Notes: generated by a model from the letters alone, not told the origin. A DNA stretch of 64,000 nucleotides from an uncultured archaeon (GCA_964558645.1 CAZLEV010000005.1:64001-128000), one strand, 5' to 3'. Counted from the first letter of the stretch, positions 54,727 through 63,802 are shown. Numbers and translations are program-made.

Positions 54727-55773
54727 TCATATCCAGCCAAAGAGAGCCACATAGGCCACTCCCGCTATGAGAGAAAACAGGAAGAAGATAACCGTATAGA
54801 TGAGAACGCCTCTCCATTTGAAGAACCGACTGTTCGGGGCCATTGATACAAAGTCATAAGGCTGTCCCATCATGAAGGCCAATGCAGTTGACCGCGACAT
54901 TCCCTTTGCAAGAAGCGTACTTGTTAGTACAATCTCAACAAGCGTGGGTGTGTAAAGGGGACCACCAAGAAGCGATCCGAAAAATATACCCAACCACCCA
55001 GTGAAGTACGAAACAATCCATTCGCTAGGAAGAAAAGCAGCAATGTAGCTGACGATAATCAGCCCGATGAGTAGATAAGCAAGAATCGATTTCATCAAGA
55101 ACCATATATTGTTGTATACATTTCGAACTCGATCATTAATTGTCTTTGTCAGTAGTAGCTTCTTGGCTTTTCCTACTCGTACATCATCATACTGCTTCTG
55201 AAGATCTCTTGCGAGCTTCGTTCGATCAAATACAAATCCACACAAAACAGCAGCGATCATGGAAAAGAACAGTCTGAACAAGCCAAGATCCCAACCCAGA
55301 TAATCGCCTGTCAAAAGAATGGTGATCAAATTGGCAGCTGGAGCCATCAGAAAGAAGGTCATCGCAACGCCAACAGTTGCGCCACTCATTAGAATTGAAA
55401 CATAGATGGGTATTACCGAGCAACTACATGTTATGAACAGGGGGGATAGGAGTGCAGCAAGCAAGTAGTTCCTTAGACCGTGAGACCCAAGATACTTGAC
55501 AATCATATCCTCTTTTACATACTCCTGGATAGCCCCCCCAATGAAGAAGGCCAACAATAATGAAGACCATGCATTCCTTCCGTAATCAATTATGTACCTT
55601 ATCGGAATCTCGTACAATGGAAATTGACTGTAATCAATGGTCTGAGAAGGTGGTGGTGTAGATAAGAGCTCTATCTTATTGATGACGAACGCACACACGA
55701 CCGCACCAAACACAATGATTAGCAGAATAGTAGTGAGATGAATTCCATCAGTACTCTCTGACTGCTCTTCCGT
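54727..55773 (-). CDS. ArsP/DUF318-family permease; probable ACG start (track start 55713)
   Basis: TCSCSVIP, AMTFFLMAP and GMS...ALAF. The in-frame N-terminal TM extends upstream of GTG 55713. Confidence 0.82.
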   Translation of the reverse strand, partial: TEEQSESTDGIHLTTILLIIVFGAVVCAFVINKIELLSTPPPSQTIDYSQFPLYEIPIRYIIDYGRNAWSSLLLAFFIGGAIQEYVKEDMIVKYLGSHGLRNYLLAALLSPLFITCSCSVIPIYVSILMSGATVGVAMTFFLMAPAANLITILLTGDYLGWDLGLFRLFFSMIAAVLCGFVFDRTKLARDLQKQYDDVRVGKAKKLLLTKTINDRVRNVYNNIWFLMKSILAYLLIGLIIVSYIAAFLPSEWIVSYFTGWLGIFFGSLLGGPLYTPTLVEIVLTSTLLAKGMSRSTALAFMMGQPYDFVSMAPNSRFFKWRGVLIYTVIFFLFSLIAGVAYVALFGWI

Positions 55774-55815
55774 ACTGGTTCTCTCCTGTCAATTCAGACT
55801 TAGGCACAAAAATGC

Positions 55816-56112
55816 TTATCCTGACAAGATTTGCTTAATCGCTCGATTTATTTGTTTCTGGGTCGGAACATCGCCTTCTGACACAACATACTCATTGATG
55901 ATGACAGCAGGTCCCTTCAAAGATCCGTACGTCTCCAGTGTTGTCTTATCTGTTAAGGAAATATGTTCAATCGAACTGTCATAGTCACCAAGTGCTGCTA
56001 ATGCCTCCTCGATGTTCTTCTTGGTCTTTCTGCATCGGTCACAAGGAGTCTCTGGGCCAGCAATCTTAACGATGATCTTTTGCATGTTGGTTCTGTGACT
56101 GGAGTCGTTCAT
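55816..56112 (-). CDS. Small thioredoxin-like protein (MTH895/thioredoxin_3 family)
   Basis: PCDRC (CxxC), YG...PAVIIN and GDVP; classic partner of ArsP permeases. ATG at 56085 is an alternative start. Confidence 0.85.
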   Translation of the reverse strand: MNDSSHRTNMQKIIVKIAGPETPCDRCRKTKKNIEEALAALGDYDSSIEHISLTDKTTLETYGSLKGPAVIINEYVVSEGDVPTQKQINRAIKQILSG

Positions 56113-56651
56113 TGTGACTAGTCTACGGAGATAGAACCTATTTGAGCTTTCTTACACTTCAAGACGTTGCCGCCCATCTTTGTGATGAGAGGAGTGGGGG
56201 ATGTACTGGTATCGATGAAGGAGTGACCGAGTATGCTGGAGACATGGAAGGATATAGCCAGAGCCGGGTCTGCACTGCTCTCTGTGATTCTCGTGCTTCA
56301 GGCTCCGATGGTATGGGTGTATCTGGAAACGCCAACCTCGTACTAATGGTGCGTCTAAAGGTTGTTTCCAACAAGAGAATCTGGGAACCGGTGTGCTCAT
56401 ATGCTTGAAGGATGGCTTGGTCAGTGTGATTTGCCGCAGATATCGTGGATTGAGCAAGAAGGATCCTTTCTGTAGTTCAATATGGCAAAAGATGACAAGG
56501 GATCACATCTGGGTAACAGGAGGGATTGTGTAACTACATCTTTCTGTCATTCGACTACTGCCCACGTGGTCGTGTTTAGGCCGTGCGCGGACGATGCTCA
56601 CCGATAGACTAAATATAGACTATCTCTCGATTAGGCATAGGGTGTTGAGAT

Positions 56652-58544
56652 TTGGTTTTAAGAGGAGATGACGCGGAATATCAGGAAGCAATCCGGTTCT
56701 GGGAGGGGCAAAGCGATACAAACAAACGAATAATCCTTCAGACCCTTGTAGAAAATAGCTGGGACTTCGAGGGGGTTACAGAGGAGTATGGTAGCAAGAT
56801 AGCTCGTATTCCCCTTTCTGTCTTGCAGGCGGAGTATAAGAGGCTGAATCTGACTCCTAGGCGATTGGAGAAAGAATTCCGAGATCCGTTGAAGGCAACT
56901 CCTTTGAAGAATACTCTGAAGCGTTTGAGTCAGACCTGTACCGCAGAGGAGGCGATCGCAGAGTTAGTAGACAATGTCTTCGACAACTTTGCGAGGAAAC
57001 GTCATGAACGTACAACGGATCTCTTGGAAATCGGCATTCACTTCCTCTCTCGTGAGGGGGAACACTACGACGAGATAATCCTCAGGGAGAATAGTGGGGG
57101 GGTCAGGAATGATGAGCTTCTCCCGTTGGTTCGGTTGGGGGACTCGGCGACTGCCGGAGCACGCACGATCGGTGCATGGGGACAAGGATCGAAGATTGCA
57201 TGCTTTGCCCTAGCAGATGAAATAGAGATTTTTACCCATCATCCTGCCCATCGTCCGGTCTGTATTCATTTCCCAGACGGATGGCTAAAGGAAGAACACC
57301 CACGATACAAAGACTGGGAAGTGAAAGTATACGAAGCTGAGGATGTACCTAGTGGGACAACGGTATTTCGTTTCTGTAACTTGAAGACAACGGCAAGAAC
57401 GGCTGACCTGACAGCTATCAAGAAATACCTTGAGAGAATCTATTCCTACAAAATCCAGGATTGGAGAGAACAGGGTACCACGATTGATATCCGATTAGAA
57501 GATACACTGAGCGATGTATCCTATGAAATTGAACCCGTTTTCACTGTTGATATTCTCGAGGAAGAGAGGGGCTTCTGTTGGTTTCCTGATTATGCACCAT
57601 TGGAGGTGACTCATGTGCTCGAAAGCGAAACGCCGTTGGGTGAGAAGATCGAAGTCAAGGTAAGGATGGTTTGTGGTATACTGAGTGATTCGAAGTCGGA
57701 CCTAGGGGGAGTATATATGTACGGTAATAAGCGACTCTTCACACCAAAGCCGGAAACTGATGAAAGGGTGGGTTACGGTCTAGATGTTCAGGGAAGGAGA
57801 GGCAAGATTCAGAAATATCGGCCCTCGCTCTATCGTCTTTTGACATTTGTCTTCTTCGAAAGCGAGGAACAGGAGTCTGAGTATATACCTTGGGCTGCAC
57901 CTCTCAAGAACCGGTATAATCCAAGTAACGTCTTTCATGATGAAATAATCCAGATTCTCTACAGAATAGTCTATCCGTATAGTCTTGTATGCGAAGGTCT
58001 AGAGAGGGAAATGCTACCATTCTTTTCCAAAAGATGGGACGCTCTTGGCCGCCAAGAGAAGAAGAACCTAGTGGAATCATTCTTTGGCGGAGACGTGAAT
58101 CCCGAGGAAGTAGTCAAATACCATATCATTGAAGGCAACCTGGACAATCTTCGTCAGTTCCCTTTTGAACAAGTAAAGGGAATCAGCGACTTGCCCTTCG
58201 GGCAAGTAAAATCTTCAACAGTGAAGAAGTTCCTAGAAAAAGTCAAAGATGAGAAGTTCAACGTTGGAAGGAGAGAGTTCTTCTTGGCATTCTTCTCGGG
58301 CACGGTGAATCGACTAGTCGGTGAAGGAGTGCTCGACATAGACTTACCCGCACCAGATCCAGATCATATCAATATGGAGTACATAGAGAGTTGCCTTGAG
58401 CAGATGGAGCAGCTGTACGAGTCGGGGACAATCAAGCTTGAGATGGATGAGAAGGAGAAACTACAGAAGAAACTCAATCTACCAGAAGAGGCATCTGTAG
58501 CTGAGATTATCGATGCACTTGCAAAGAAAGAACTCGGCATCTAG
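56652..58544 (+). CDS. GHKL (HATPase_c/MORC-like) ATPase
   Basis: AIAELVDN (motif I), ENSGG (II), IGAWGQGSK (III) and SGTTV (IV); S5-like GVYMYGNKRLF. Confidence 0.85.
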   Translation: MVLRGDDAEYQEAIRFWEGQSDTNKRIILQTLVENSWDFEGVTEEYGSKIARIPLSVLQAEYKRLNLTPRRLEKEFRDPLKATPLKNTLKRLSQTCTAEEAIAELVDNVFDNFARKRHERTTDLLEIGIHFLSREGEHYDEIILRENSGGVRNDELLPLVRLGDSATAGARTIGAWGQGSKIACFALADEIEIFTHHPAHRPVCIHFPDGWLKEEHPRYKDWEVKVYEAEDVPSGTTVFRFCNLKTTARTADLTAIKKYLERIYSYKIQDWREQGTTIDIRLEDTLSDVSYEIEPVFTVDILEEERGFCWFPDYAPLEVTHVLESETPLGEKIEVKVRMVCGILSDSKSDLGGVYMYGNKRLFTPKPETDERVGYGLDVQGRRGKIQKYRPSLYRLLTFVFFESEEQESEYIPWAAPLKNRYNPSNVFHDEIIQILYRIVYPYSLVCEGLEREMLPFFSKRWDALGRQEKKNLVESFFGGDVNPEEVVKYHIIEGNLDNLRQFPFEQVKGISDLPFGQVKSSTVKKFLEKVKDEKFNVGRREFFLAFFSGTVNRLVGEGVLDIDLPAPDPDHINMEYIESCLEQMEQLYESGTIKLEMDEKEKLQKKLNLPEEASVAEIIDALAKKELGI

Positions 58545-58559
58545 TGGAGAAAGCAGCAG

Positions 58560-59060
58560 ATGCGATACAGAAGTGTGACGGAAAAGGACATTCTGTTCAT
58601 TCTTGAGGAATCGATTAGTAAGTTGCCGCATCATCCTTGGATCCAGACCGAGAGTGACATAAAATGCGCACTTTATACCGCGTTTTACAATATGATTTCA
58701 GTCCGAATAGCCAATCTCGAGAGCTGTGGTTGGCGAGTCATTACGGAGTATCCATTACCCGACGGCAAGTATGTCGATTTTGCTGTTCTCCACAACGGCC
58801 ATCCGTGTTTGTTTGTTGAGATAAAATACATCAAGAATTTCACAACTAAGGAAATCGCGGATATTCGGGAGGACTACTTGAAGAGAAAATCCTTTCTGAT
58901 CAGCGAAGAAGTCAAGCTGCTACAGCTTGTTGCAAGTGAGTTTGACGGGGACTACGAAGAGGTGATTTGCGAGAAGATGATAAGAGCATATGGCGAACTC
59001 TATGAGGGGGGTCTGGGAGGAAAGGCATACATCATATATATTCGGATTCCAAGTGGCTGA
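58560..59060 (+). CDS. PD-(D/E)XK-type nuclease
   Basis: TESD, EYP...YVDFAVL......FVEIKY and a downstream helix DY.KR. Confidence 0.72.
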   Translation: MRYRSVTEKDILFILEESISKLPHHPWIQTESDIKCALYTAFYNMISVRIANLESCGWRVITEYPLPDGKYVDFAVLHNGHPCLFVEIKYIKNFTTKEIADIREDYLKRKSFLISEEVKLLQLVASEFDGDYEEVICEKMIRAYGELYEGGLGGKAYIIYIRIPSG

Positions 59061-59085
59061 GGCAGAAACTACAGAAAGCGCATTG

Positions 59086-59472
59086 CTACTCCGTTAGTAC
59101 ACTCTTCTGACGACTGTCAAGCAAAAGCAAGAAGTCATCAAGCGATCTGATCCTCGTGTGGATCAGGGATATGCCTCGGTTAAGGTGAGCCTTGAGATAG
59201 GCTTCAGCCTTTTCGAAGTCGATTTCATCTGCAGATAACCGTTCGATCAGAAGAGATCTGAAAGCATTATCCCATTTTCCCGTTAAAGAGTACCTATTCA
59301 GTTCTTTGCCATCTTCATCGAAGTCGAAACTTGGAAACCCCTCTTTCTCCATCGAATAGCAGAGAGCAACTCGACACAGAAGATTCGGTGTTATTCCTGT
59401 CCTCCGCCTCAAGACAGTTAGTTTGGAGGTTGACGACCGACTGACCTTGATTTTCTTGAATTCCAGCTTCAT
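59086..59472 (-). CDS. dndE: DNA phosphorothioation protein DndE
   Basis: TGITPNLLCRVALCYS, GKELNRYSLTG and KAHLNRG; ATGA-coupled to dndD. Confidence 0.93.
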   Translation of the reverse strand: MKLEFKKIKVSRSSTSKLTVLRRRTGITPNLLCRVALCYSMEKEGFPSFDFDEDGKELNRYSLTGKWDNAFRSLLIERLSADEIDFEKAEAYLKAHLNRGISLIHTRIRSLDDFLLLLDSRQKSVLTE

Positions 59473-61460
59473 CCGCAGGTCCTCCTGGTCGTTGCTATTG
59501 TACGGCGTTCGGCACCATCAAACTGAAGATGGTATTCCTGAGATATGATGGGGCGGATCTTCTTTCCAACCTCTTCGGTAACTTCAGTTTCCGTAGCGAA
59601 CATTACTATCTGTGGACCTGCAAGTGGAATGAATTTCGAGATCACAGAGGCACGATGTTCCTCATCTAGTCGGGAGAATGGAGTATCAATGAAGACTGGC
59701 AGACTTCTCTTCGATATTTTAGAGATGGCGCCCAGTAGTGCATATATGTAGATTTGTTGTTCTCCTGAAGAAAGGACCGACGAGCCGGTTGTCCTGCCAT
59801 CGCTATGCTGGATACTGACATCAAGTGCATCCCTTCCAATTTCAACGGCACGGAGTCGTTTGTTACGGGGTCGCATGTTGTTGTAAATCTGCTTGAACTC
59901 TGCAGTCAGTTCTTCTGCATAAAATGAATGAAGTTCTCTCTTGAATTCTTTGACTACCCCACGGAGTCTGTCAACTAGTGCAAGTTTCCGTTTGTGCTTC
60001 TCGGCCGCCTCTGTTTCTTTCATTGCCTTGTTCTGACGGTTCCTAAGCTGCTCAATGTCAACAATGAGCGAATCAAGCTCGTCCTGAAGCTCGTTTTTCT
60101 CCCGTTCGATCTTCTCAAGGTCCCGTATAGAATCACGCAAATCGCTCACAAGAGGTTTGAGACTCTCATCTGTGGGCATTCGAGAGAGGTCATCGCGTAC
60201 TTGCTCCAGTGAGGCTTCTACTTGGCCGTATTCGCTTACATAGTCTCTGAATTCCTGAAGAGCTGTCGGCGCATCATGGGTAAGTAGTCTGACTACCCGG
60301 TCGGTTTCGAAAGAAGATAGCTTGTGACGAAGCGGAATATTGTGACTATTCTCAAGTCTGCTGGATATCGCATCCAGAATGTCCTCAGCTATGCGCTCCT
60401 TCTGGGAAGAGGATAAATCAAGTGAGTCGAACACGCCATCGGAAGCCATTGAGCTAGCAAGTTCCTTCTTGCCATCCTTCATCTTTCTGACTACTGCATT
60501 AGATGATATTATATCCGCTTCTCTCTTTAGAACCTCGACGGTCTTCTTCTTCAACGATGGGGCGAAAACAAACGGGAGAGCATTTGAGAAAAGCTCTAGT
60601 ATTGCTCGCTCTAATGTTTCTTTCTCAACAAGGAGATGTCGCTCTTGACGGTGAAGCTCGTTCCTTTGCTCAGCATACTCTGAGCCCTGCCTCGAAAGCC
60701 TTAGCTCCTGTTCCGTAATGGAAGCCTGGATATCGATGAGAAGGCCGTCGATTTCGGCTAGTCTCTCATGAATCCACTCGCTCCTCTCAGTCAACTCATT
60801 TATCTCATTCTCTAGCTTCTCGAACACAGAGAAGTCGGCCTGAATCTCCTTCTTGTTCAACCAGTACATGTATCTAGGCAAGTCGGAATCCAGTTGATTG
60901 ACAACATCGATTCCCACCAGAGTTTCAAATCCGTCTCTGAAAATCTTCTGTGGGCCGCGGGCTCCAGATAGTCGGTCTATTCGTTCCCCGTCGAAGAATA
61001 TCAGCTGGGCGAGTCCTGCAGGCACAAAATTCAGAAGGAATTCCTGAGGATAAGTGAGTTCCTTCTCTGGTTCTCCTCCCTGTAGAATTGATGCTCTGAG
61101 GTCCTCAATCACACCACCGTCTCTTTGAGTCCATGCGCGGGATATCCGGAGACGGTAATCGATACCTCGCTCAGCATAGGCTATTTCCAACTCTATTGAT
61201 GAAGTGTCGGCGGAGTTTCCGCCTGATATTCGCTGCTTGATGAAATCCTGGTAATCCGCTTCTTTCATCTTGATCCCTCGGAAGAAAGGGCCGTAGATGC
61301 AAAGAGAGATTGCCTGAAACAGTGTGCTCTTACCGGCGCCATTCTTCCCAGTGAAGAGAATCAACGAAGGTGATTGTTTTTCGTCTTCACAGGACAGACT
61401 GAAGCTATAAGATCCTCGATATGGACCGAAGTTCCGAATGTCTACAGAACGCACCCTCAT
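59469..61460 (-). CDS. dndD: DNA phosphorothioation SMC-like ATPase DndD
   Basis: NFGPY, GKNGAGKST, FFDGERI, coiled coil, LSSGEQQ, FIDTPFSRLD and ATETE. Confidence 0.95.
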   Translation of the reverse strand: MRVRSVDIRNFGPYRGSYSFSLSCEDEKQSPSLILFTGKNGAGKSTLFQAISLCIYGPFFRGIKMKEADYQDFIKQRISGGNSADTSSIELEIAYAERGIDYRLRISRAWTQRDGGVIEDLRASILQGGEPEKELTYPQEFLLNFVPAGLAQLIFFDGERIDRLSGARGPQKIFRDGFETLVGIDVVNQLDSDLPRYMYWLNKKEIQADFSVFEKLENEINELTERSEWIHERLAEIDGLLIDIQASITEQELRLSRQGSEYAEQRNELHRQERHLLVEKETLERAILELFSNALPFVFAPSLKKKTVEVLKREADIISSNAVVRKMKDGKKELASSMASDGVFDSLDLSSSQKERIAEDILDAISSRLENSHNIPLRHKLSSFETDRVVRLLTHDAPTALQEFRDYVSEYGQVEASLEQVRDDLSRMPTDESLKPLVSDLRDSIRDLEKIEREKNELQDELDSLIVDIEQLRNRQNKAMKETEAAEKHKRKLALVDRLRGVVKEFKRELHSFYAEELTAEFKQIYNNMRPRNKRLRAVEIGRDALDVSIQHSDGRTTGSSVLSSGEQQIYIYALLGAISKISKRSLPVFIDTPFSRLDEEHRASVISKFIPLAGPQIVMFATETEVTEEVGKKIRPIISQEYHLQFDGAERRTIATTRRTCG

Positions 61461-62860
61461 CGATCAAGCTTCCTCCTAGTAGCAAGCACTTCCTCTTTCG
61501 ACCGCCATTCCTCAGAGAAGACTCGGTCGATATGTTCCATCATCGAAGATCTTCTCGCTAGACCCTGCTTCAACGCCTCCAAATCAAGTAATTTCTTGAC
61601 AAGATCTAGTGGCACATTCTCTTTCTCACAGAGGCTCTGAAGAATATCCTGCTCTTTCATTCCGAAGGTGACTATGTCGTCCGTCTTCCACTCCAAGTCC
61701 TTATCCATCTCTTCTCGATATATTTTTGGAACACGATCAAGCCAATCTGCACGCTCCAATCGCCAGATACGGCGGATTGCATGTAATTCATCAGAGCGAA
61801 TAACCACGAAGGTATCCAGACCTGTTTCATCTATCTTCTTCTGAACTCTTAGCACCATTCTTAGTATCTTCTCACACACATCAAGCCTGTATGGGCCTGG
61901 AACGATGGCACTGGAATCATTTCGCATGAAAGAAACACGGCCGTTTCGTCTTTTGTACTGGCGATATTCCTTCTTCTTCTCCGGATTAGTAGTCATATGC
62001 AAGAAGTCCCTTATCTCGAGAAGATCACTCATCCAACCTCTTCTGGTGTCAATTAGATGTTCCATGGATCTATCGCTTTCCACGAGCGTACAGACCCAGC
62101 ATCCGAAACGCGAGTTACCACAAGGAGGCGTCTTTGTGTCAACAACCATAGGGCACTCTCCGCCCTCGGCATCTTTATAGAGATCAAACAGGGCGTAGTT
62201 ATCACCGCCCCAAGGGGAACTCTCTTCCAGTAGATAACCCCAAACTTCGTCTACACTAAACTCCTTGATAGGAGCATAGACATAAGCTCCCGCAAAGTGT
62301 GTATGTTTGAGGAGCTTCGGCCTTTTCGTTTCTCTCAAACTGAGTACTTGATCGCGTGTGGCACTTTCACCCTGTCTGACACCCAATACGATTATCACTT
62401 CGCCATGATACGCAATCTTCTCCTCAATGAATCTGTTCGATGGTCGTATCTTCAAACGATCCGTACACCAGCGAAATTTCTGGGTTGGAGCAGGATATCC
62501 TCTCCCAATAAGGTTCACCCAGAAACTATCATTTATGGCGGGCTGAACCAATGCAATCTCAAATGGGAGATTCGCATCCTCGGCCGCATTCTTCATTCTT
62601 GAGAGAGAATCGCGTAGGTAGTCGAGGACAACAGGGTTCTCTACGAATGTATCGGAGGATATGACATAGAGCTTCTTTTGCAGCTTCTTTCTCGGCAATT
62701 CGGACAGTGCAGACCAGACCATCTGTAAAGCCGCTGTGGAGTCCTTGCCCCCGCTGTAACCAACTATCCACGGGCGGTCGTCCGCAAGAAATAAGCTTCT
62801 GATTTCCTCGTATATGTTACTGAGCCGCCACTCATCTATGATCACCGATGTTTCACTCAT
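61457..62860 (-). CDS. dndC: DNA phosphorothioation sulfurtransferase DndC (PAPS-reductase family, Fe-S)
   Basis: GYSGGKDS, FWVNLIGRGYPAP..FRWCTDRLKI, ECP and CGNSRFGCWVCT. Confidence 0.96.
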   Translation of the reverse strand: MSETSVIIDEWRLSNIYEEIRSLFLADDRPWIVGYSGGKDSTAALQMVWSALSELPRKKLQKKLYVISSDTFVENPVVLDYLRDSLSRMKNAAEDANLPFEIALVQPAINDSFWVNLIGRGYPAPTQKFRWCTDRLKIRPSNRFIEEKIAYHGEVIIVLGVRQGESATRDQVLSLRETKRPKLLKHTHFAGAYVYAPIKEFSVDEVWGYLLEESSPWGGDNYALFDLYKDAEGGECPMVVDTKTPPCGNSRFGCWVCTLVESDRSMEHLIDTRRGWMSDLLEIRDFLHMTTNPEKKKEYRQYKRRNGRVSFMRNDSSAIVPGPYRLDVCEKILRMVLRVQKKIDETGLDTFVVIRSDELHAIRRIWRLERADWLDRVPKIYREEMDKDLEWKTDDIVTFGMKEQDILQSLCEKENVPLDLVKKLLDLEALKQGLARRSSMMEHIDRVFSEEWRSKEEVLATRRKLDR

Positions 62861-63169: not shown

Positions 63170-63802
63170 CTATTCGTACTCATTCGACAAGAACTGCTTG
63201 GGTATTTCTGCAAGTACCTTCTTCTCGAACTGCTCTCTGACTCTAACAAAGTCAAGAGCAATGTACTCAGGCGCGTGTGACCTCATCTTCCACTCTACAA
63301 ACCTGCTGCTCGCAAGTTTGTCGATGAAGGATATGTCCCCATCTTCTCTTGCGGCATCAGAGTAGTACGGAAACACGACATTGGTTACGAAATCGTCATC
63401 GAGGATTATGTCAAGAAAGTCGTAAAGCTTCCGCCTGTATTCAACTTCCCTTTCTTGATCCAGATCCTCGTTCCTTGATAACCACAGGAGAAGAAGTGCA
63501 TTGCGAAGCATGTTTACTTCTTTCTCTACATTGGCACTGAACTCATAGCTGCCGTCGCAAGGGAACTCGTCAACTTCCAACGGAGGAAGTTTGACGGTTG
63601 AGTAGAGCCCGTAGAAGACTGTTAGAAGGAGGATGTCCACCTTCCTGGGTCCGCTAAGGTAGTCAGTTTCGTTGTACTGATCACGTCCCTCCTTCCCGGC
63701 TGCTGGAGATTCAGCAGTCTGCTCACCCACCGCCTTCAGAAGACTCTCAAGTTGTTTCGGCATTCTGATATTACCTTTTAACTGCATGTTCCCAGACCTC
63801 AC
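63170..63802 (-). CDS. Dnd-associated hypothetical protein (PbeD/DndE-like candidate)
   Basis: GTGA-coupled to the upstream ABC/SMC ATPase and located directly upstream of dndC. Confidence 0.6.
   Translation of the reverse strand: MRSGNMQLKGNIRMPKQLESLLKAVGEQTAESPAAGKEGRDQYNETDYLSGPRKVDILLLTVFYGLYSTVKLPPLEVDEFPCDGSYEFSANVEKEVNMLRNALLLLWLSRNEDLDQEREVEYRRKLYDFLDIILDDDFVTNVVFPYYSDAAREDGDISFIDKLASSRFVEWKMRSHAPEYIALDFVRVREQFEKKVLAEIPKQFLSNEYE

Follow-up and report, generated by a model that had tools for sequence, protein, structure and literature searches.

A stretch of 64,000 nucleotides from an uncultured Asgard archaeon (GCA_964558645.1, CAZLEV010000005.1:64001-128000), referred to here in its whole length as the window, carries at positions 56652–59060 of the + strand a cassette of two genes, in which a MORC-type ATPase is followed by a small PD-(D/E)XK nuclease. 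We read the pair as an autonomous defence cassette, housed in a dnd–pbe island, whose nuclease is licensed by the MORC ATPase, and give this reading a probability of about one half. Judged from its sequence, the cassette is probably an antiviral module of the kind predicted in 2008 by comparative genomics. The analysis establishes the reality of the genes, the folds and catalytic residues of their products, the conservation of the cassette as a unit, its sporadic distribution, and the defence-island and restriction–modification contexts of its relatives. The cassette is unnamed, is absent from PADLOC 2.0, and is new both for Asgard archaea and for dnd–pbe islands. Its features are the following.

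56652..58544, + strand: MORC-family GHKL+S5 ATPase, 630 aa (P0001), from HATPase_c_3 and MORC profile matches and the AlphaFold2 (AF2) model
56652..56876, + strand: N-terminal four-helix extension, residues 1–75, from the alignments and the model (helices within residues 7–67)
56877..57551, + strand: GHKL (Bergerat) ATP-binding domain, residues ~76–300, from invariant columns and the MORC4 alignment
57552..57941, + strand: S5-type transducer domain, residues ~301–430, from the MORC signature G353-VYMYGNK-R361-LF and invariant K419
57942..58421, + strand: helical C-terminal module, residues ~431–590 (~160 aa), from the model
58422..58541, + strand: strand-helix-helix tail, residues ~591–630 (40 aa), conserved between clades
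58560..59060, + strand: standalone PD-(D/E)XK nuclease, 166 aa (P0002), with predicted catalytic residues E31, D73, E87 and K89, from invariant residues and the structural model

The cassette genes are real: homologues exist for each of the two open reading frames (ORFs), so neither is a chance occurrence. The ATPase ORF begins with a TTG codon, a start supported by the close homologues, whose first residues align with it. The co-oriented nuclease ORF follows after 15 nt, and its stop is separated by 25 nt from the stop of dndE (59086), which lies on the convergent strand. These coordinates agree with the layout given in a first-pass annotation made by a model from the sequence alone, which had described a two-gene unit with a 15-nt gap ending 25 nt from dndE.

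In Pfam, the ATPase matches a single family, HATPase_c_3 (residues 97–200, E 6.5e-8), with no match for the N-terminal extension, the helical C-terminal module or the tail. A search of 1.84 billion representative sequences yielded 212 relatives at E <= 1e-3, only 10 of them at E <= 1e-30, and the core common to these relatives spans residues ~75–480. Across both a broad alignment of 33 members (A2) and a second one of 10 members (A4), the invariant residues are E104, D107, N108 and D111 of motif I, G174 and G177 of motif III, and G353, R361 and K419. Motif I centers on E104/N108, and motif III reads G174-x-W-G-x-G179. Motif II is ENSGG (E146–G150); because HMMER aligns it to the motif II DDGCG of human MORC4, it corresponds to a D to E and a G to S change. 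The first-pass annotation had already singled out this variant motif, which proves to be the consensus across the family.

The best relatives of known structure retrieved from the PDB by the family-profile sequence search are MORC4, MORC3 and MORC2 (E 1e-10 to 1e-6), while MutL appears as a weak match confined to its N-terminal GHKL part. Residues 353–363 (GVYMYGNKRLF) fit at 10 of 11 positions the S5 motif GhXhhpXXRhl, which Iyer et al. 2008 (PMC2292703) gave as specific to MORC proteins, and HMMER pairs this stretch, which is not significant on its own, with GIMMYHNNRLIK of MORC4. The AF2 model reaches high confidence (pLDDT 92), and residues 67–521 superpose on the ATPase module of SMCHD1 (Z 17.5) and on TRAP1/Hsp90 (Z ~17); the part aligned to the ATPase and middle domains of SMCHD1, TRAP1, and Hsp90 spans residues 83–516. 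The protein thus combines the features used to recognize the MORC family, namely motifs I–III, an S5 fold with a conserved basic residue (K419), the S5 motif, and a restriction/methylase neighborhood. On the strength of its sequence and predicted structure, it falls within the prokaryotic MORC proteins as Iyer et al. 2008 define them.

The GHKL core is preceded by an extension of ~75–80 residues that is conserved in the close clade (W17, R64-L65, P69) and forms four helices in the model, in keeping with the extension of ~75 aa reported in the first pass. The C-terminal module had been described there as small and helical; the model agrees that it is helical, but with a length of ~200 aa, tail included, it is not small. 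The modeled tail suggests a possible dimerizing, DNA-binding end, and a sequence similar to it occurs as a separate gene of ~100 aa in one of the more distant clades (clade C, below). A likeness of the tail to a ribbon-helix-helix fold was an impression by eye and found no support in Pfam, in the PDB profile search, or in an hhalign comparison with DndE.

For the nuclease, sequence searches return a faint NERD match in Pfam and one close homologue. Among the partners from four cassettes, E31, D33, W58, D73, E87, K89, D105, and K108 are invariant, and the pattern E / (P)D / ExK / D..K is kept in eight partner nucleases, three of which are encoded upstream of the MORC gene (loci L031, L044, and L047). 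In clade B, one of the related groups introduced below, the nuclease matches Pfam HSDR_N with 25.6 bits. The model of the nuclease (pLDDT 75.5) retrieves EcoT38I, BstEII, SfsA, NucS, and HamA in Foldseek at E ~2e-3 to 8e-3, with none at E <= 1e-3. An independent structure search (VIA) returns BglII (Z 9.7, root-mean-square deviation 3.9 over 130 residues), OkrAI (Z 8.9), BamHI (Z 8.5), and BstYI (Z 8.1). In agreement with the earlier assignment to the PD-(D/E)XK nucleases, the invariant E-D-ExK residues and the modeled structure identify the protein as a predicted restriction-endonuclease fold of the PD-(D/E)XK superfamily. It is a bare catalytic domain without a DNA-reading domain of its own. 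No fusion of ATPase and nuclease was found among the longer nuclease relatives, which is weak evidence.

Because the nuclease has no means of its own to read DNA, the ATPase would most likely recruit and license it, in the way that MutL acts on MutH. If it behaves like MORC, MutL, and Hsp90, the ATPase would dimerize on ATP binding and clamp DNA, with a constitutive contact at the C-terminal ends. We infer this interaction between the two proteins, as well as the DNA target and the antiviral role. The best mechanistic precedent for the split, two-protein version seen here is MutL–MutH of mismatch repair: MutH, a small endonuclease of the restriction fold that reads an epigenetic mark, is a protein of its own and is switched on by MutL, a dimeric GHKL+S5 ATPase.

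The likeness to MutL–MutH could also be taken to mean that the pair serves a DNA transaction other than defence, either nicking and repair of the MutL–MutH kind or the maintenance of a mobile element. A GHKL+S5 ATPase with a small restriction-fold nickase is indeed the MutL–MutH arrangement, and Iyer et al. allow for the occasional recruitment of MORC proteins to repair (PMC2292703). We nevertheless consider such a role very unlikely, as only 2 of the 87 related genomes carry the pair, no MutS-like partner is seen, and the contexts of the family are defence islands and restriction–modification genes. The cassette also differs from MutL–MutH in lacking MutS, the MutL C-terminal domain, and a MutH family match (neither protein matches MutL_C or MutH in Pfam or NCBIfam), and in its accessory distribution.

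The cassette recurs as a unit, with a spacing of 3–15 nt, in four Asgard genomes (this genome, G000, together with G325, G183, and G226) and on one metagenome contig (L043). This recurrence, which includes genomes without DndC and SspD, supports the autonomy of the cassette. The ATPase family is sporadic, being present in 5 of 400 genomes of the phylum. A quick tree separates five ingroup clades on an unresolved backbone, four of which have a nuclease partner; over the whole family, a restriction-fold nuclease partner is present in eight loci.

Clade B (G183, G226, and L043) shares ~28% identity with the ATPase of the window and consists of MORC and nuclease genes, 3 nt apart in G183 and G226 and 8 nt apart in L043. 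Neither DndC nor SspD was found in G183 and G226, which are 99% and 93% complete, and no adjacent methylase is seen at the clade B loci. The cassette can therefore stand alone. In clade C, seven metagenome loci carry in order an N6_N4 DNA methylase (~330 aa), a HEPN-type protein (~165 aa) with MtlR/DUF4145 matches and an RNDFAH motif, the MORC ATPase (~585 aa), and a small protein of ~100 aa; the contigs are among L034–L036 and L038–L042 (for example, L036:428-4167). This operon looks like a restriction–modification-like system with a predicted RNase effector.

Other loci present further combinations. A C5 methylase, the nuclease, and the MORC gene follow each other in L047, the MORC gene precedes a methylase in L032, L033, and L037, and a methylase–MORC–methylase order is found in L015, from another Asgard genome, and in L029, from a Natronorubrum plasmid. 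Methylases of the N6_N4, C5, or Dam type are thus seen in all of these loci and in clade C. Across these loci, the MORC core is the constant part around which the effector, this nuclease or a HEPN protein, and the DNA methylase are swapped. A constant core with changing effectors and modification genes is typical of a defence system, in which the ATPase would be the sensor or regulator and the small protein the effector.

The neighbors of the cassette and its family are defence or mobile genes, including insertion sequence (IS) elements, a PHP-SMC ATPase, and the dptFGH, Dam, DUF262, HNH, and TIR genes of L029. An association of the homologues with defence islands, on which the first-pass proposal of a defence role had been made to depend, is therefore observed, and restriction–modification genes are part of the same contexts.

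Several side observations concern these more distant relatives. On the Natronorubrum aibiense plasmid (NZ_CP045489.1, L029, 7856-11784), a distant family member of 622 aa lies between two Dam-type methylases and is divergent from dptF-dptG-dptH; DUF262, HNH, TIR, PLD, and helicase genes are found elsewhere in this large defence island, and no dndCDE lie within 30 kb. In L031 (5826-9734), a DUF6996-DUF6997-DUF7226 protein of 442 aa precedes the nuclease and MORC genes, which are followed by a convergent zinc-hook SMC-like ATPase, a further variant of the architecture. A Pol-beta-type nucleotidyltransferase domain is fused to 6 of the 33 members of the A2 alignment; these six match the PADLOC candidates PDC-S09 and PDC-M05A, probably through that domain. 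Two viral contigs (L009:2310-3902 and L010:7971-9569) encode outgroup GHKL proteins of ~530 aa, one of them adjoining a tape-measure gene, so relatives occur in phages or prophages too.

Four points weigh against an autonomous cassette. The defence role of the family is a prediction from sequence and models. In the closest clade, both cassettes are in physical linkage with dnd–pbe genes, and independence accounts for this by co-residence in the island only. Most other clades carry a modification gene of their own, and without one, self DNA needs some other protection. Finally, the sample of contexts is small and partly made up of kin.

The closest clade (clade A, 46–51% identity) comprises the ATPase of this genome, that of locus L001 in G325, and three metagenomic proteins (P0008, P0010, and P0011); gene context was read in the two genomes. 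Like this genome, G325 is a Thor-type metagenome-assembled genome; it comes from the same archaeal family and another genus. A contig scan of the genome collection for close relatives returned the G325 locus and a weak Dehalococcoidia match only, and a first metagenome scan for close relatives of the cassette found none. The close-clade pair is present in 2 of 87 genomes of the class and absent from both congeners of this genome. In the window, the genes that face the cassette are the following.

59086..59472, − strand: dndE, convergent neighbor of the nuclease gene, from Pfam, PADLOC, and NCBIfam
59469..61460, − strand: dndD, from PADLOC and NCBIfam, with Pfam matches for the dndCDE set
61457..62860, − strand: dndC, from PADLOC and NCBIfam, with Pfam matches for the dndCDE set
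63170..63802, − strand: pbeD-like gene, sharing 43% identity with the gene that follows pbeC in L001

Past the window end, the same contig continues with pbeC (622 aa), a pbeB-sized ORF of 56 aa, and pbeA (670 aa). In L001, dndE-D-C on the − strand are followed on the + strand by pbeA, pbeC, pbeD, an IS element, the MORC gene, and the nuclease gene. The gene order thus differs, the pair converging on dndE in the window and lying beyond the pbe genes and the IS element in L001, yet both cassettes are within ~6 kb of dndCDE–pbeABCD. The identities between the two islands are 59% for DndC, 57% for DndE, 50% for PbeA, 48% for PbeC, 46% for MORC, 43% for PbeD, 39% for the nuclease, and 33% for DndD, the PbeA and PbeC genes of L001 being those that match the corresponding PADLOC models. 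As the values for MORC and nuclease fall within the range of the island genes, the pair has diverged along with the island, and the linkage is old. The IS element of L001 (9028-9867) encodes an rve integrase and a helix-turn-helix protein; since it lies between pbeD and the MORC gene, the pair and the dnd–pbe module were either joined or separated by transposition. A different island type occurs in the same archaeal family, in a related Thor-type genome (G363, L025, 8574-14647), where dndCDE are flanked by genes of 388 and 369 aa, the sizes of DndA and DndB, and neither pbe genes nor the MORC pair are present.

This linkage raises a serious though less likely alternative, phosphorothioate-coupled restriction, which the first-pass annotation had also put forward as a candidate phosphorothioate-sensing restriction module: Dnd would take the place of the methylase, and the pair would cut DNA whose phosphorothioate is lacking or foreign in pattern, as a second arm beside PbeABCD. 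The two clade A cassettes have stayed linked to dnd–pbe in two gene orders, one of them with an IS element in between, and their divergence (46% and 39%) points to an old association, in a phylum where few genomes have dndC (9 of 400, with 4 of 87 in the class). Where other clades usually have an adjacent DNA-modification gene, Dnd is the only one here. Rakesh et al. 2024 also argue that it may be the nucleases at Dnd loci that are the true restriction components (PMC10853773). These points are balanced by others. The sample consists of two genomes from a single archaeal family and may reflect one acquisition event; no known phosphorothioate system is present in clade B; and seven of the nine dndC-positive genomes of the phylum lack the pair. 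The pair forms a transcription unit of its own, convergent with the dnd genes, and no model of a phosphorothioate reader or known effector matches it in Pfam or PADLOC. Moreover, as pbe genes are present, the Dnd module at this locus already has its described partner. Co-occurrence with dndCDE, which the first-pass annotation had proposed as a check, is seen in clade A, with both cassettes beside dnd–pbe; in clade B, neither of the two genomes has DndC or SspD. In its most specific form, that of a third restriction arm reading the Dnd phosphorothioate as a self mark in place of the methylase of its relatives, the proposal is likewise less probable than the autonomous reading; if true, MORC-type ATPases would be general readers of whichever epigenetic mark their island supplies.

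Rakesh et al. describe standalone restriction endonuclease genes that border Dnd loci and in many cases are encoded on the opposite strand; their main text makes no mention of MORC or GHKL partners (PMC10853773). The cassette matches this class in that it, too, borders a Dnd locus and lies on the opposite strand. The role proposed there for such nucleases is that of a backup suicide effector: viral inhibition of Dnd–Pbe would trigger the pair, and the ensuing indiscriminate DNA degradation would abort the infection. The HEPN RNase predicted in place of the nuclease in clade C fits the logic of a toxic effector. Such a role is improbable here, given that it draws on the same weak evidence of dnd linkage as phosphorothioate coupling and that in clade B there is no Dnd system for the pair to support.

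Returning to the autonomous cassette, its comparison with named systems separates it from each of them. Neither protein is matched by a model of NCBIfam or of PADLOC, one of the two tools suggested in the first pass for a check against named defence systems. In particular, neither P0001 nor P0002 matches any PADLOC family of DndFGH, PbeABCD, SspE, or SspFGH at E <= 0.1, whereas their neighbors match DndC, DndD, and DndE strongly. Iyer, Abhiman and Aravind 2008 (PMC2292703) described by comparative genomics prokaryotic MORC proteins associated with restriction endonucleases or methylases and with no helicase. Like these MORC/paraMORC restriction–modification operons, the cassette family combines restriction-fold nucleases and DNA methylases with a GHKL+S5 ATPase that bears the MORC S5 signature, and it belongs to the sporadic, laterally mobile 'minority' class without helicase. 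Unlike what was described then, it pairs the ATPase with a nuclease of ~170 aa, a cassette not named in that work, and it has the ENSGG motif, the N-terminal helical extension, the strand-helix-helix tail, an Asgard host, and a dnd–pbe neighbor. The suggestion of an independent, undescribed two-gene defence system, made as an alternative in the first-pass annotation, is the one that fits best, except for the word 'undescribed', since MORC with a restriction endonuclease or methylase and no helicase was described in 2008 and fused proteins of a GHKL ATPase and a nuclease (VcSduA, Tiamat) are experimentally shown defences. In a preprint dated October 2026, the restriction-type defence role of prokaryotic MORC ATPases is still termed proposed.

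Two fused systems offer further parallels. VcSduA/paraMORC3, a Shedu system of type I-D, needs both of its active sites for antiphage activity (PMC12137116; Gu et al., bioRxiv 10.1101/2023.08.10.552793), and its GHKL ATPase and middle domain control a PD-(D/E)XK nuclease, a control that the cassette may share. VcSduA joins its ATPase and a DUF4263 nuclease in a single protein chain, whereas the cassette consists of two ORFs 15 nt apart. No DUF4263 match to the nuclease is found in Pfam at E <= 0.1, and the similarity of E. coli SduA to the nuclease model is weak (Foldseek rank 38, E 0.033; not in the VIA top 50). Tiamat, experimentally shown to act in defence and likewise dependent on both of its active sites, fuses a GHL ATPase to a NOV_C PD-(D/E)xK domain (bioRxiv 10.64898/2026.09.30.754977). 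It shares with the cassette the theme of ATPase and DNase, the methylase and nuclease neighbors, and the swapping of effectors ('Tiamat-like' proteins), but it is fused, much larger, and of a different GHL clade, on the Hsp90/SACSIN side. With no Pfam match to NOV_C/DUF3883 in either protein and no PADLOC match, the pair falls outside Tiamat.

Prokaryotic MORC ATPases are regarded as the source of the eukaryotic MORC silencers. With one ATPase and one bare nuclease, the cassette comes close to the smallest possible version of a MORC system, and because it is near-minimal, it would be a clean system for studying the licensing of a nuclease by a MORC clamp. Should the linkage to dnd prove functional, the pair would be a new effector class for phosphorothioate immunity and would speak to the published case for restriction partners of Dnd beyond DndFGH and PbeABCD.

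A single further feature precedes the cassette.

56610..56617, + strand: TATA-like box TAAATATA, from direct reading of the sequence, 34 nt before the TTG start

The TAAATATA box is a candidate archaeal promoter of the MORC–nuclease pair. A promoter and terminator scan with bacterial-type models returned nothing relevant around the pair; Rfam gave no RNA match within 55600–59200, and no tRNA was seen as a marker of the island border. The box lies in a 540-nt gap (56113–56651) with no convincing gene, upstream of the ATPase. Directly upstream of the pair, positions 54727–56112 encode an ArsP-type permease and a small thioredoxin at low GC (0.42–0.46), next to the point near 54.5 kb of the window at which GC drops from ~0.55 to 0.42–0.48.

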